From the NCBI RefSeq assembly GCF_024502345.1, contig NZ_JALDNN010000001.1: DNA of 64,000 nt; one strand, given 5' to 3'. This stretch comes from Escherichia coli (GTDB lineage Bacteria > Pseudomonadota > Gammaproteobacteria > Enterobacterales > Enterobacteriaceae). Below the pieces are notes generated by a model. That model did no database searches, was not told the DNA's origin, and saw only the letters and a program-made list of their open reading frames with translations. The position numbers and the translations under genes were made by a program. Below are positions 56,988 to 64,000 of this stretch, one piece after another; position 1 is the first letter of the stretch; the number at the start of each line of letters is the position of its first letter.

Positions 56988-57323
56988 CAGAAGCGATCCT
57001 CTTATGATATGTAGGGTGACATGGCGATGCTCATTTCGTAGCCATAATCTAAAAATATCTACATTTCTGAAAAATGCGCACAAATGCGACATATTGTTTT
57101 CCTATTGTGATCAAAAACAACAAATTAGTAACATTTAACGTAGGGTATTAAGGCAAAGTGAGACAGGAAATGAATAACTAAAGCAACAGGTTAGGGGGGA
57201 ATTACCATCAGAGAACAGATTATCTGGTCGATAAAAAACGGTAAATGGCTTCACTGCAAAATGACCGTCAGTAAACTAAACATATTATCTGCCCCGTTTT
57301 AGCGGGGCAGATATAACATTAAA

Positions 57324-59012
57324 TTACAAATAGAGATAGTTCAGCGGTTCTCCTGTTTTCCCTAAAAGAAGAGCGCTACGCCCAGGAATATTGATATTTA
57401 GAGTTCCGCCTCTAAGCATAAATGCTTTACCAGGGGGGATAATTTTTCGGGTATTATTAATAATAATGTTAACGCTATTACTCCCCATGTTTTTATATTT
57501 TCCAGGTTGCAATTTGTTAGGCCAGGCACCTTCAACTTCTTCGTTTCCTTTATTTATTATAACTAGTCCATCATGAGGAGAGTGATTAATGTTCACCGAA
57601 TCCCCACGACTAAAGGCCAGAACGTTTTTAGTTGCAAATACACCCTCAAATGCGCTCCATATTCCTGCTTTATCTATATATAATGCGTGGAATTCATTGT
57701 AGAGCTGCTGATAGGTAGAGCAACCTTTATTAAGCCACGCCTCACCGCCGACACGCGTCGACCCATCATAATTTTTAATTTCAGTCGTTGATTTTAATAC
57801 TTGGCCATCCCAGTAAACTAAAGGCCTGCTGAACGGGAGAGCGGCCATATATGCCATTGCTAATTGTTCATCTTGTTGATGGTTAAATAGAAAGTCATTG
57901 AAAAGATTGCCATTGTTAGGAAAAACGTGGTTAATGTTAATCAATATCCGTCTTTTTGATGGGATGCTTGAGATTGTTGAACCCGGTTTTGATGCAAGGG
58001 TTTGGAGATCGCCACCAAATGAAAAAGCTTTTATCGTCTTCATGAGCAATGAAAAATCAATGGCGCTTAAATCATCTCTTTCATAAAGCAGCGATGACAT
58101 TTGTTGTTCATCCAACTGACAAGTTACCAGATATTCCATGTAATTCATAACGGCTTTTTCATGATATTTTGGGTTAAATAAGTTAGTATTGTGTAATCGC
58201 TCATTATAATTTTTAAGCGGTGGGGTTATTGATCTTTCTATTTGTTCATGTTTTGAGTGTTTTGCCGCATCATAACGTAAACCTCGTACGCCATATTTTC
58301 GCATTTCACGAACGTATTGATTTTGCAGCATAATAACCTGGTCACTTTTGGGGGTTGTTTTAGGCATTCCATTTAAACGCTTTTCTTTTAATGCATGGAG
58401 GTTTTCCCATTCATCCTTAGAAATATTATCTTTACTTGCTTCGAAGTCTTTTGCAGTGAGATGTATATCTTCTGGATGGATTTGTTTACGTTCTTTTGTT
58501 ACTGGATCTATAGTAAATGGAATCAAAACCTGACCTTGCCAATAGCCAGGGATACCACCTTCTATATCTTTACTGATCTTCGCTCGTATATCAGCAGAGG
58601 GATAATCCAGGTCATTTTTACCACTACCCCCGATTCCCATAAAGTTAAAGGTATAATCAGGAATGATATCGATACCAAATTTTTTAGCATCTTTAACCAA
58701 TGCGATAAAATCCTGCAAATCTCCCATTGGATTATGGATGGTACAAAGATCTTCGGGTTGATAAGCGTGAAACCAGTAACCTTTTTCTTCTTCGGGAGTT
58801 TCTGGTCCGTCGGCGCGGAAAGTTGTCACTGGAGGGATTTGTATATACCCATAATGGCAACGTGCAAACTCAGACATATTTTCCCTGATTTGCTGGTAGG
58901 TGGCATTAAAAGCATGAAGAATCGCTTCGCCAGGTTTTTTGGGGGTGATGATTTCACATTGTGATTTCTGAACAGCAGTAAGGGATTTACGCTCAAGTGT
59001 TTGCCGTAGATG
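57324..59012 (-). pseudogene. ygaQ: GH13 (alpha-amylase-like) protein YgaQ, 5-prime-truncated by IS3
   Basis: 517-aa ORF with alpha-amylase region II-like motif GLRYDAAKH; the frame stays open upstream of the first Met as far as the IS3 end at 59013; AT-rich. Confidence 0.7.
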
Positions 59013-59077
59013 TGATCTTACCCAGCAATAGTGGACACGCGGCTAAGTGAGTAAACTCTCAGTCAGAGGTGACTCAC

Positions 59078-59377
59078 ATGACAAAAACAGTATCAACCAG
59101 TAAAAAACCCCGTAAACAGCATTCGCCTGAATTTCGCAGTGAAGCCCTGAAGCTTGCTGAACGCATCGGTGTTACTGCCGCAGCCCGTGAACTCAGCCTG
59201 TATGAATCACAGCTCTACAACTGGCGCAGTAAACAGCAAAATCAGCAGACGTCTTCTGAACGTGAACTGGAGATGTCTACCGAGATTGCACGTCTCAAAC
59301 GCCAGCTGGCAGAACGGGATGAAGAGCTGGCTATCCTCCAAAAGGCCGCGACATACTTCGCGAAGCGCCTGAAATGA
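59078..59377 (+). CDS. insE: IS3 OrfA (InsE)
   Basis: [50 protein letters not shown]... Confidence 0.9.
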
Positions 59378-62062: not shown

Positions 62063-63772
62063 ATGAGTATGTTTCAGATATCAGCTGGAGTGTTCTTTGA
62101 TTTAGATAAAATAGAAAAACACGATGGCGCATTTGTTTTTTATTCAAATGTTGATGTGTCTTTCTCGGTGGAAAACACCTCCCCTCTTTTTAAAGCAAAT
62201 AAAATAAGTCATGATGGTATAAACTGTTATGTGGTAAACTATACTCTCCTGACCGAAAAACCAGAACGAATTGAAGCTGGAGTCGTAGTTAGGGCTGGTG
62301 ATGAGGATTATAGGCAACAATTTATTTTATTATGGGAATTCTATTTTGATTGTGTGGCTAGAGTAGAAAAAGAATCGGTTAAAAAAATATGTGCATTATC
62401 AAATTTTAATAAACATCACTCAAAAATTGCGCTTGAAGTTGCCCCATATTTAGTGGAGATTAACCGAAGAGTTTCATTTGATGATGTCTCTGGGTTTTCT
62501 GCTTTTATTAAAGATGTAGTGAATCTAAATAGATCTGCCTTTAAATCTTTAATGGCAGCGTTAAAAATAATTAGTGATTCAAAAGAATCATTGTCAACCA
62601 ACTTTGACCTGACTTATTCCATGTTAGTCTATGCCTTGGAGTCTTTGTCTCAAAGAAATGATAACTATAAGTCTGATTGGGATGACTACGATCAAAAAAC
62701 CAGAGGTGAATTAGAGTCTGTATTTGAGCATATGCCTGGTGAGGATGTTTGTAAAATTAAATCAATACTTATTGAAGGCAAACAATTCAGATTACAAAAA
62801 AGGTTCAAAGATTTTATACTGAAAAATCTTGAAGAAAATTATTTCAATGAAACAGAGAGATATCCAATCCGCTATAGCTTCCTTAGTAGAGCTTTAGATA
62901 ATTTATACAAAATCAGGTCTTCTTTTGTCCATGAGCTTAAGCCACTTGATGCAATGATCTCGAAAGCCTACAATCCTGTTGGTGATTGTCTGGTTCTTTT
63001 TGGCGAACCTCACTTCAGTTACTCTGGATTGCTTCGACTTCTTCGCCATGTGATAATAAATTTTTGCCGTAAAAACTACAGTCAAAAAAGAGAGTATGTT
63101 AATTGGGTGATGGAAACATCGGGTGTAATGGTTGCAGAGATATCTGCACAATATTGGCTCTGGAATGCAGACGGATTTACAGCTAAAAGTATAGCGAAGT
63201 GGTTTAGTGAATACCTAAATATGTTAAATTTAGGCGAAGTCACTGATTTGCAGTCTATCATGGACAAAATTGAGATAATCTATGACCAATCCAAAAAAGA
63301 ATATAAAAATGGGTTGTTGTATTTTTATTTCTTATATAACTTAATGCATAATGGAAATAAGGGTGAATGGCTTGAGTTTGCGAACAAGCGAAGTTCTATA
63401 CTTGTTTGTGATATATATTGGTATTCATGCTCTCCATATTTATATAAATCATTTACTAATGTTTCAAATGGTATTGCTGATATAAAAACATTGAGAAACT
63501 TTTTGTCTTGTTTTAACGAATATGATAAAAATAAATTTAAGCCAAATCGTTTAAATCTCCCTGCAATGACCGAAGTAATTATGTTGGCTTGCGCAGCAAA
63601 TTCATTCTTCAGAATTGGAATGTATCAAGACTATGTTTTAATGGGCAATAGAGCGATGAGAGAAATTGCTTCAGTAAAAGATGTATTTTATTATATAAAA
63701 GAACGATTAAGTAATTCACAACTTATTGAATTGGACGAGTGCTTGAGATTGTATAGAAAAAAAGGGGGCTAA
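62063..63772 (+). CDS. Hypothetical protein, 569 aa, AT-rich orphan
   Basis: Complete ORF; RBS AAGGA at 62058-62062 favours the second ATG at 62069; clearly A+T-rich relative to core genes; no family recognised; R-S-S-F-V-H at residues 285-290. Confidence 0.7.
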   Translation: MSMFQISAGVFFDLDKIEKHDGAFVFYSNVDVSFSVENTSPLFKANKISHDGINCYVVNYTLLTEKPERIEAGVVVRAGDEDYRQQFILLWEFYFDCVARVEKESVKKICALSNFNKHHSKIALEVAPYLVEINRRVSFDDVSGFSAFIKDVVNLNRSAFKSLMAALKIISDSKESLSTNFDLTYSMLVYALESLSQRNDNYKSDWDDYDQKTRGELESVFEHMPGEDVCKIKSILIEGKQFRLQKRFKDFILKNLEENYFNETERYPIRYSFLSRALDNLYKIRSSFVHELKPLDAMISKAYNPVGDCLVLFGEPHFSYSGLLRLLRHVIINFCRKNYSQKREYVNWVMETSGVMVAEISAQYWLWNADGFTAKSIAKWFSEYLNMLNLGEVTDLQSIMDKIEIIYDQSKKEYKNGLLYFYFLYNLMHNGNKGEWLEFANKRSSILVCDIYWYSCSPYLYKSFTNVSNGIADIKTLRNFLSCFNEYDKNKFKPNRLNLPAMTEVIMLACAANSFFRIGMYQDYVLMGNRAMREIASVKDVFYYIKERLSNSQLIELDECLRLYRKKGG

Positions 63773-63786
63773 CCCCTTTTATTTTT
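63757..63786. terminator. Bidirectional rho-independent terminator
   Basis: AAAAAAAGGGGG-CTAA-CCCCTTTTTATTTTT overlapping the convergent stop codons of the 569-aa ORF and integrase remnant B. Confidence 0.7.
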
Positions 63787-63932
63787 AACGTATTCTCCCC
63801 ACCAATCCATCAATTCAATTCGCTGCACGAGATAAGTAGAACGATTGTATGCTTTTCTAACTTCATTTTTATCACTGTGGGCTAAGGCAGACTCGATAAC
63901 ATCAGGATTTAATCCAGCTTCATTCATGGCTG
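63769..63932 (-). pseudogene. P4-type tyrosine integrase, C-terminal remnant B, truncated by IS903 copy 2
   Basis: Reverse-strand translation ...AMNEAGLNPDVIESALAHSDKNEVRKAYNRSTYLVQRIELMDWWGEYVKNKRG-stop; about 54 codons; related to but distinct from remnant A. Confidence 0.65.
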
Positions 63933-64000
63933 GGCTTTGTTGAATAAATCGAACTTTTGCTGAGTTGAAGGATCAGATCACGTATCTTCCCGACAACGCA
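63933..64000 (+). mobile_element. IS903-group insertion sequence, copy 2 (partial, runs off window), inverted relative to copy 1
   Basis: 63933-64000 is the exact reverse complement of 61314-61381 (the transposase-proximal end of copy 1). Confidence 0.85.

Follow-up and report, generated by a model that had tools for sequence, protein, structure and literature searches.

Insertion sequences at a trimmed island edge and in an already defective nrdE gene: local evidence against an IS-expanded Escherichia coli lineage

The stretch of DNA analysed here, which we call the window, comprises 64,000 nucleotides of an Escherichia coli contig (NZ_JALDNN010000001.1) and contains four insertion sequence (IS) copies of three families within 23 kb. 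This density raises the question of whether IS are multiplying genome-wide and inactivating genes in an IS-expanded lineage, be it Shigella-like, host-restricted or of laboratory origin, as a sequence-only reading had proposed, or whether the copies reflect the particular place in the chromosome where they lie. That reading had called an IS3 at 59013, IS903 copies at 60325 and 63933 and an IS2-group element in nrdE, and all four calls and their coordinates are correct. The four are ordinary, already-known elements, namely IS3, two copies of IS903B and one ISEcl1-like element. Three of them fall within some 5 kb at an integration hot spot, crowding the trimmed edge of the well-known variable island beside csiD/ygaQ in what looks like normal island-edge clutter. 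We therefore favor, with a probability of roughly 0.8, a reading of routine mobile-element events in a rare, otherwise intact commensal-type lineage, in which erosion of an island edge is combined with a recent insertion in nrdE rather than with genome-wide expansion. The features concerned are the following:

40864..44357, minus strand: nrdE pseudogene (N-terminal part 42554-44357, C-terminal part 40864-41217)
41202..41217: left copy of a 16-bp target-site duplication, TACTCGACGTAGCATG
41218..42553, plus strand: ISEcl1-like element (IS3 family, IS2 group), 1336 bp, intact, inside nrdE
42554..42569: right copy of the 16-bp target-site duplication, TACTCGACGTAGCATG
56013..56987, minus strand: glaH/csiD, intact and the final core gene to be fully conserved (100% over 325/325 aa to GlaH of FDAARGOS_944 by tblastn)
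57327..59012, minus strand: ygaQ', alpha-amylase-family gene with codons 189-750 kept and the first 188 lost, GC 0.38
59013..60270, plus strand: IS3, 1258 bp, complete and intact, ends TGATC...GATCA (NCBIfam transpos_IS3, 3e-101)
60271..60324: island remnant of 54 bp, normally about 45 bp past the 3' end of the outer parB gene
60325..61381, minus strand: IS903B copy 1, 1057 bp, complete, with 18-bp perfect inverted repeats GGCTTTGTTGAATAAATC and a single IS5-family transposase
61481..61900, minus strand: C-terminal fragment of a P4-type tyrosine integrase (139-aa ORF; NCBIfam PRK09692 positions 267-395 of 413, 9e-48)
62063..63772, plus strand: AT-rich cargo gene of 569 aa, candidate ApeA-like HEPN protein
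63769..63932, minus strand: 3' end (~54 codons) of a second P4-type integrase gene, which encodes 398 aa when uninterrupted and is broken here by IS903B copy 2
63933..64000, plus strand: left end of IS903B copy 2, which lies in the opposite orientation to copy 1; 68 bases visible and the rest beyond the window

Where the sequence changes after csiD, the window enters the ileY/ssrA integration hot spot. GC content falls from 0.55-0.61 in gab/csiD to 0.38 between 57 and 59 kb and to 0.33-0.34 between 62 and 64 kb, which bears out the AT-rich switch originally described at this point. The first AT-rich block (57.3-59.0 kb) is ygaQ and is not foreign DNA, since the gene is intact at the same position in the comparison E. 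coli genomes TB06052 and FDAARGOS_944. The preceding part had been described as K-12-like core; this holds for gene order but not for sequence, as the best complete genomes are FDAARGOS_943/944, at 99.5-99.7% identity in parts, and all other complete genomes reach at most about 99%. In K-12, ygaQ, ileY and CP4-57 occupy the interval after csiD. The window shares this chromosomal position with the K-12 ygaQ-ileY-CP4-57-ssrA region, and its relatives possess the island integrases and tRNA/tmRNA attachment sites of that variable region. It differs, however, in having lost ileY, in its other island content (a ParB/recombinase/HEPN-like module) and in being trimmed by IS.

The IS3 copy agrees with IS3 of E. 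coli in its length, in its imperfect terminal inverted repeats of the TG...CA type (TGATCTTACC...GGTAGGATCA, 59013-60270), in the overlapping frameshift arrangement of orfA (59069-59377) and orfB (59374-60240), with a DDE (rve) transposase (NF033516, 3e-101), and in its 99.8-99.9% identity to the annotated IS3 copies of TB06052 (contig L001) and of contig L002. In contrast to the usual element, it has no 3-bp target-site duplication (left flank ATG, right flank TAA) and bounds a deletion on its ygaQ side. The duplication is missing because ygaQ codons 1-188 and ileY have been deleted, and the identity of the element is unaffected. The retained part of ygaQ aligns to residues 189-750 of the intact 750-aa FDAARGOS_944 protein, with matches to Pfam Alpha-amylase and Alpha-amylase_C. 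A search for tRNAs across the window found no tRNA-Ile; FDAARGOS_944 and TB06052 each retain intact copies of ygaQ and ileY. In K-12, too, ygaQ is a pseudogene. The ygaQ::IS3 junction is an old marker. At least 21 further contigs share it, most of them derived from gut metagenomes and some 70-82 kb long. On the far side of IS3, the 54-bp island remnant has exact 54/54 matches at L001:10717, L003:5705 and L004:31, and its junction with IS3 is also present in L004. A separate, independent IS3-bounded deletion in PigCaeca_2 runs from ygaQ to the ssrA-adjacent integrase, so that the locus is a recurrent hot spot.

IS903B copy 1 has the 1057 bp and 18-bp inverted repeats of this member of the IS5 family (IS903 group) and matches copies annotated by PGAP as IS903B at 100% identity. 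It departs from the usual IS903B in that no 9-bp duplication surrounds it (GGTCGTTGT versus TGTCCCCAT) and in that it stands in place of 3562 bp of island DNA. In the IS-free native island of L004 and L001 this is the distance between the 54-bp remnant and the equivalent of position 61382, and the interval, L004 85-3646, encodes two ParB proteins and a serine recombinase. The missing target duplications thus indicate that IS3 and IS903B copy 1 mark deletions. One might instead read the join of the 54 bp, IS903B and position 61382 as an assembly collapse of two direct IS903B copies around the ParB-ParB-recombinase segment, which would make the 3.56-kb deletion unreal. Both junctions of copy 1 lack a duplication and are absent from every other assembly compared, which speaks for a collapse, but the remaining junctions of the region are confirmed in independent assemblies, the sequence contains no ambiguity, and adjacent deletions are generally known as an outcome of IS903 activity. 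We consider a collapse very unlikely.

Between the two IS903B copies lie 2551 bp containing the integrase fragment, the 569-aa gene and the 3' end of the second integrase gene. The fragment matches Pfam Phage_integrase and corresponds to an intact gene of 409 aa in TB06052 (L001:14432-15661); the second integrase gene is intact at L004:6034-7230. The 68 visible bases of copy 2, to which its comparison with the usual IS903B is confined, equal the reverse complement of the right end of copy 1. The copies are thus inverted as in Tn903 with a single cargo gene between them (60325-61381 and from 63933), and most contigs with the 569-aa gene are only 2-5 kb long, i.e. repeat-bounded, as might be expected had a Tn903-like composite transposon carried the HEPN-like gene into the site. 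The interior, however, is collinear with the native island in L004, where positions 3647-6197 equal window 61382-63932, and in L003, both of which extend past the IS positions. Furthermore, L004 has neither IS903B and L003 has copy 2 alone, at an identical junction that also recurs in L005-L008. These arrangements imply that the IS903B copies inserted in place, and the outer flank of copy 1 is island DNA as well, leaving a composite transposon scarcely credible. An inversion between the two copies, or an intramolecular replicative inversion, was likewise rejected, as the DNA between them is oriented to its two flanks as it is in L004, and none of the reverse-complement duplications that such an event would leave is present. 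Combat11I9, with an IS903B within a gene annotated as 'recombinase', was considered as a structural relative and set aside, since it represents another prophage locus, flanked by tfaR/stfR, ydfK and ompN. Both IS3 and IS903B are common in E. coli, the latter being found in 1535 of 5426 complete genomes at a median of 2 places.

The 569-aa protein has no match in Pfam or NCBIfam. It gives a weak PADLOC match to Cas13-ApeA (7e-6), and its homologues include one with the UniRef name 'Apea-like HEPN'. Across 31 homologues the motif R285-SSFV-H290 (RSxxxH), which fits the HEPN pattern R-x4-6-H, is invariant. The AF2 model (pLDDT 85) suggests an N-terminal beta domain followed by a C-terminal helical-repeat domain and yielded no specific fold match. 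The PADLOC match, the invariant R-x4-H and the island location are points of likeness to ApeA, a HEPN-domain single-gene anti-phage defence; in contrast to ApeA, the window protein, of about 570 aa, shows neither a Pfam HEPN match nor a structural match. On these sequence features we regard it as a candidate ApeA-like HEPN protein.

The fourth IS lies in the core part of the window, in nrdE. This ISEcl1-like element has TG...CA ends, with orfA at 41282-41677 and orfB at 41635-42516, and copies with 100% identity to it occur in other E. coli and in Citrobacter. It shares its length of 1336 bp and its ends with an element of a K. pneumoniae plasmid located between copR and mcr-8.2, to which it is 98.4-98.7% identical; the element in this position on Klebsiella plasmids has been named ISEcl1 (PMC7305932). 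ISEcl1 occurs widely on resistance plasmids of Klebsiella, with 1576 plasmid records, whereas the window copy is chromosomal. Two sister contigs, L031 (GCA_050022275.1) and L033, share 99.98-99.99% identity with the window (the 99.98% being measured over 20 kb) and have an empty ISEcl1 site, so the insertion is recent; its junction with nrdE is also absent from GTDB representative genomes and JGI metagenomes, and exact-protein searches with the chimeric NrdE fragments and with the truncated YgaQ gave no match. A nonsense codon at 40900-40902 (E702 to stop) removes the last 13 residues of nrdE, including CVSC. Since the same stop is already present in the IS-free sisters, the IS did not inactivate a working nrdE. 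This order, with the nonsense mutation first and the IS later, provides a clean small case of an IS entering a gene already freed from selection.

These observations bear directly on the proposed IS expansion. It is true, as first reported, that an IS element lies at the point of disruption in both nrdE and ygaQ. The further suggestion of ongoing IS-mediated inactivation stands in so far as the nrdE insertion is recent, but not in so far as the gene was a pseudogene before it. An IS-expanded lineage would be in keeping with the four copies in 23 kb, with the absence of the nrdE insertion from a 99.98% identical sister and with the rarity of the lineage among complete genomes. All IS in the window are, moreover, intact and 99.8-100% identical to copies elsewhere, and hence are probably active. 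An IS within a core metabolic gene and IS-bounded deletions also recall the IS expansion of Shigella and other host-restricted enterobacteria. In contrast to such expansions, the core part of the window is collinear with the references and has a single IS in 59 kb, without further insertion, and 54 of the 56 core genes compared (96%) are free of stops, frameshifts and truncations, the remaining two being affected. The asc, srl, hyc, gab and nor operons are all intact, and IS1, IS600 and IS629-type elements of Shigella were not found in the window. Assemblies of members of the same clone yield contigs of 70-82 kb that begin at the IS3 junction and extend through the entire core part, which implies that their genome is not saturated with IS. 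The local evidence from this 64-kb window therefore speaks against an IS-expanded, Shigella-like or decaying lineage; the claim finds no support here, and we consider it improbable. A Shigella origin is unlikely on the same grounds of intact operons, long clone-mate contigs and missing Shigella-type IS, in a comparison confined to an E. coli collection. The strain-specific nrdE insertion would be compatible with an IS burst that is only just beginning in a rare gut clone resembling phylogroup E, which we regard as less likely. IS counts taken from a window that includes an island edge overstate the genome-wide IS load.

Under the favored reading of routine events, an integrative island with the ParB-ParB-serine recombinase module, the integrases now seen as remnants and the 569-aa HEPN-like gene would once have occupied the ileY/ssrA hot spot. 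Common IS would then have colonised the island, piling up there because insertions in island DNA are presumably selectively neutral, and the island would have been trimmed afterwards. A deletion on the left side of IS3 would have taken the first 188 ygaQ codons, tRNA-ileY and the left part of the island. The 3562-bp loss at IS903B copy 1 might be the product of an adjacent deletion by IS903 or of recombination between two copies in direct orientation, and copy 2 would represent a simple insertion in the second integrase gene. Independently of the island, the C-terminal redox tail of NrdE would have been lost to the nonsense mutation within the clone before the ISEcl1-like element entered the gene, probably by ordinary copy-out/paste-in. 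The order of events at the island is not fully consistent across contigs, as the IS3 junction occurs in L004 in the absence of IS903B copy 2 and L003 shows the reverse, so that recombination between island variants or repeated events are needed. The locus thus documents a tRNA/tmRNA island edge eroded by IS-bounded deletions, with limited consequences.

A separate observation concerns the target-site duplications of ISEcl1-like elements. A duplication of 5 bp has been given as typical for the IS2 subgroup (PMC10045372), from which the 16 bp of the window copy depart, although the element belongs to the IS2 group by sequence identity, its orfA/orfB organization and its TG...CA ends. Among 25 complete ISEcl1-like copies, 21 have duplications of 15-16 bp, unusual for the IS3 family (15 bp in 15 copies, or 16 if one with a mismatch is counted, and 16 bp in 5), and three have 5 bp. 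The two length classes are one helical turn apart. In the literature on the element we found no statement of its duplication length. We tentatively propose, though with somewhat less than even confidence, that ISEcl1-like elements are genuine IS2-subgroup members that generate 15-16 bp duplications in about 85% of cases and the canonical 5 bp in about 12%, a single transposase capturing its target in two geometries. Such bimodality would bring to the IS3 family the discrete short/long duplication behavior known to date from the IS481 and IS1202 families and, if true, would offer a tractable handle on the geometry of the IS3-family transpososome.

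The composition profile shows a GC of 0.55–0.61 across gabDT, lhgO and csiD, a fall to 0.38 within 57–59 kb, a return to 0.52–0.55 at 59–61 kb, which is made up of IS elements, and 0.33–0.34 at 62–64 kb. Sequence reading and an ORF scan bore out every IS call of the sequence-only reading, and with full-length matches at 99.8–100% identity chance matching is of no concern. The relevant features are as follows.

41218–42553: ISEcl1-like element in nrdE, 1336 bp, with IS2-like OrfA/OrfB
59013–60270: IS3, 1258 bp, ends TGATC...GATCA, orfA/orfB (NF033516, 3e-101)
60325–61381: IS903B copy 1, 1057 bp, 18-bp inverted repeats, transposase on the minus strand (NF033579, 6e-107)
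62063–63772: AT-rich ORF of 569 aa, an island gene
63933 onwards: IS903B copy 2, 68 bases visible in the window

Alignment with over 100 independent copies fixed the limits of the ISEcl1-like element. Elements that carry the PGAP name IS903B match copy 1 at 100% identity, and the visible bases of copy 2 are the reverse complement of copy 1's right end, indicating that the two copies are inverted.

From 1 to 57 kb the gene order (hyc, asc, hydN-hypF, nor, srl, mltB, recA, alaS, csrA, tRNAs, gshA, luxS, emrRAB, proVWX, nrdHIEF, stpA, gab, lhgO, glaH) agrees with that of ordinary E. coli. The first of the AT-rich blocks is ygaQ, a gene of the alpha-amylase family; in relatives it is intact (750 aa) and followed by tRNA-ileY and then variable island DNA, and the block is therefore not foreign. 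In the window only codons 189–750 of ygaQ are kept, and ileY, whose expected position is 59012/59013, is deleted; no tRNA-Ile was found in the window. AUA decoding in a strain lacking ileY must depend on another copy of that tRNA species. Given this arrangement, the boundary after csiD is the ileY/ssrA integration hot spot, which in K-12 is the ygaQ-ileY-CP4-57-ssrA interval. The ygaQ::IS3 allele was detected in at least 21 contigs; gut metagenomes supplied most of them, with a human gut label on at least one, and an NCBI assembly supplied one. In PigCaeca_2 (L043 7824–11918) an independent IS3-bounded deletion fuses a truncated ygaQ to the ssrA-adjacent integrase, showing that IS3-mediated erosion of this locus is recurrent, with at least two occurrences. 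Two tandem arrays were also noted in the core. The gabP-gabT intergenic region (51598–51949) holds repeats of about 90 bp with self-matches of about 93%; its length differs among relatives and several assemblies end there. At 25796–26562 a tRNA-Ser is followed by four tRNA-Arg(ACG) genes, with three in ECOR29 and FDAARGOS_944, which is copy-number variation of a tandem array.

Contigs with the native island were recovered by exact-protein look-ups. In one of these, L004, the IS3 end and 54 bp are followed by two ParB genes, a serine recombinase gene, an integrase fragment of 131 aa, the 569-aa gene and a complete integrase gene of 398 aa. L004 and the window share the IS3|54-bp junction, the 54 bp corresponding to window 60271–60324. 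The next 3562 bp of L004 (85–3646: ParB, ParB, recombinase) are missing in the window exactly at IS903B copy 1, after which window 61382–63932 is collinear with L004 3647–6197 at 99.96% identity, up to where copy 2 breaks the 398-aa integrase gene. An identical junction is seen in the contigs L003 and L005–L008; only the left end of copy 2 (68 bases) lies inside the window. The expected target duplications are absent from both IS3 (flanks ATG versus TAA) and IS903B copy 1 (flanks GGTCGTTGT versus TGTCCCCAT), indicating that these copies mark deletions, produced either next to an IS (adjacent deletion) or through recombination of two direct copies. The island edge has probably been colonised, then trimmed, by known IS elements. 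A Tn903-like composite transposon was considered for the IS903B pair and rejected, as both its interior and its outer left flank are native island DNA and relatives have one IS903B or none at the identical positions.

The 569-aa protein gave no match in Pfam and NCBIfam searches and a weak PADLOC match to Cas13-ApeA (7e-6). Homologues occur in Enterobacterales, Vibrio and Aeromonas and carry the name hypothetical throughout, apart from a single UniRef entry called 'Apea-like HEPN domain-containing protein'. The motif R285-x4-H290 is unchanged in 31 homologues. The AlphaFold model (pLDDT 85) shows a beta domain at the N terminus, a helical core and a helical-repeat domain at the C terminus, and a structural search with this model returned no specific relative. 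Our best guess, held with low confidence, is a candidate HEPN-type defence nuclease. The metagenome contig L003 (1–5200) carries the same ParB-ParB-recombinase island with two ThiF-family genes and a 722-aa UvrA/ABC-like ATPase, which may be another defence-type cargo.

The ISEcl1-like element in nrdE is bordered by a 16-bp duplication, indicating a simple insertion. In the same gene GAA is changed to TAA at 40900–40902 (E702 to stop), removing the last 13 residues, EGTEIEGCVSCAL, with the C-terminal cysteine pair (CVSC), which by comparison with class I reductases would pass on reducing equivalents supplied by NrdH; nrdH, nrdI and nrdF are intact. Clone-mate contigs were found by look-up with a lineage-specific YgaV allele, and L031 (GCA_050022275.1) and L033 are 99.98–99.99% identical to the window. 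The same stop occurs without the IS in NrdE of L030, L031 and L033 (701 aa with an empty IS site in L031 and L033), implying that the nonsense mutation came first and that nrdE was crippled before the insertion. The nrdE::IS junction is absent from GTDB representative genomes and JGI metagenomes, and the insertion is confined to this strain or to a very small subclade; the hit is recent and neutral and fell in a pseudogene.

The inserted element is 98.4–98.7% identical to that between copR and mcr-8.2, named ISEcl1 in the literature (PMC7305932). We surveyed duplications at 25 complete ISEcl1-like copies from E. coli chromosomes, enterobacterial plasmids, other NCBI assemblies and metagenomes (window 41202–42569; comparison loci L015–L018, L037, L038, L042 and L044–L064); a literature search found no published duplication length for ISEcl1. 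Duplications of 15 bp flank 15 copies, with one further 15-bp pair bearing a single mismatch, and 16-bp duplications flank five, so that the 15–16 bp class totals 21/25 with the mismatched pair counted. Three copies have 5 bp, one helical turn shorter, and the one copy lacking a duplication adjoins an IS2 end. Duplication lengths are described as conserved in the IS3 family, with 5 bp for the IS2 subgroup, whereas IS481 and IS1202 show discrete short and roughly 15–16 bp classes (PMC10045372). ISEcl1 thus departs from the stated IS2-subgroup norm and behaves like the IS481 and IS1202 families.

The suggestion of a Shigella-like IS expansion finds no local support, and the indirect evidence, which includes the wide occurrence of the ygaQ::IS3 allele, counts against it. 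When 56 core genes were set against ECOR29 or FDAARGOS_944 (hycG lying only partly within the window), 54 proved free of any stop, frameshift or truncation, the exceptions being nrdE and ygaQ; whole-window alignment revealed no further insertions; and clone-mate contigs of 70 and 82 kb start at the IS3 junction and, judged from size, reach across the entire core part. IS903B is present in 1535/5426 complete E. coli genomes (median of 2 places per carrier, maximum 47) and the ISEcl1-like element in 139/5426. Three IS elements at an island edge and one in an already dead gene are what normal E. coli can show, and the mechanism is an ordinary one, combining colonisation and trimming of that edge with the pseudogene hit.

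Among complete RefSeq genomes of E. coli, coverage of 56.5–64 kb does not exceed 58%. The sole close complete genomes, and the only ones above 99% for long stretches, are FDAARGOS_943 and FDAARGOS_944, at 99.5–99.7% identity over 27.9–59 kb; over 0–27 kb they are mosaic relative to the window, with 9–20 kb at 97–99%. Over an 8-kb segment the hits ranked next, at 99.0%, include O157:H7, O55:H7 and other strains, which suggests a phylogroup-E neighbourhood. Hence the description of the core as 'K-12-like' holds for synteny alone. The lineage is poorly represented, its clone-mates being chiefly gut metagenome contigs. IS3 positions differ between the window and FDAARGOS_944, which has an IS3 between proX and a ygaY-type MFS gene (L002 8611–9868) that the window lacks.
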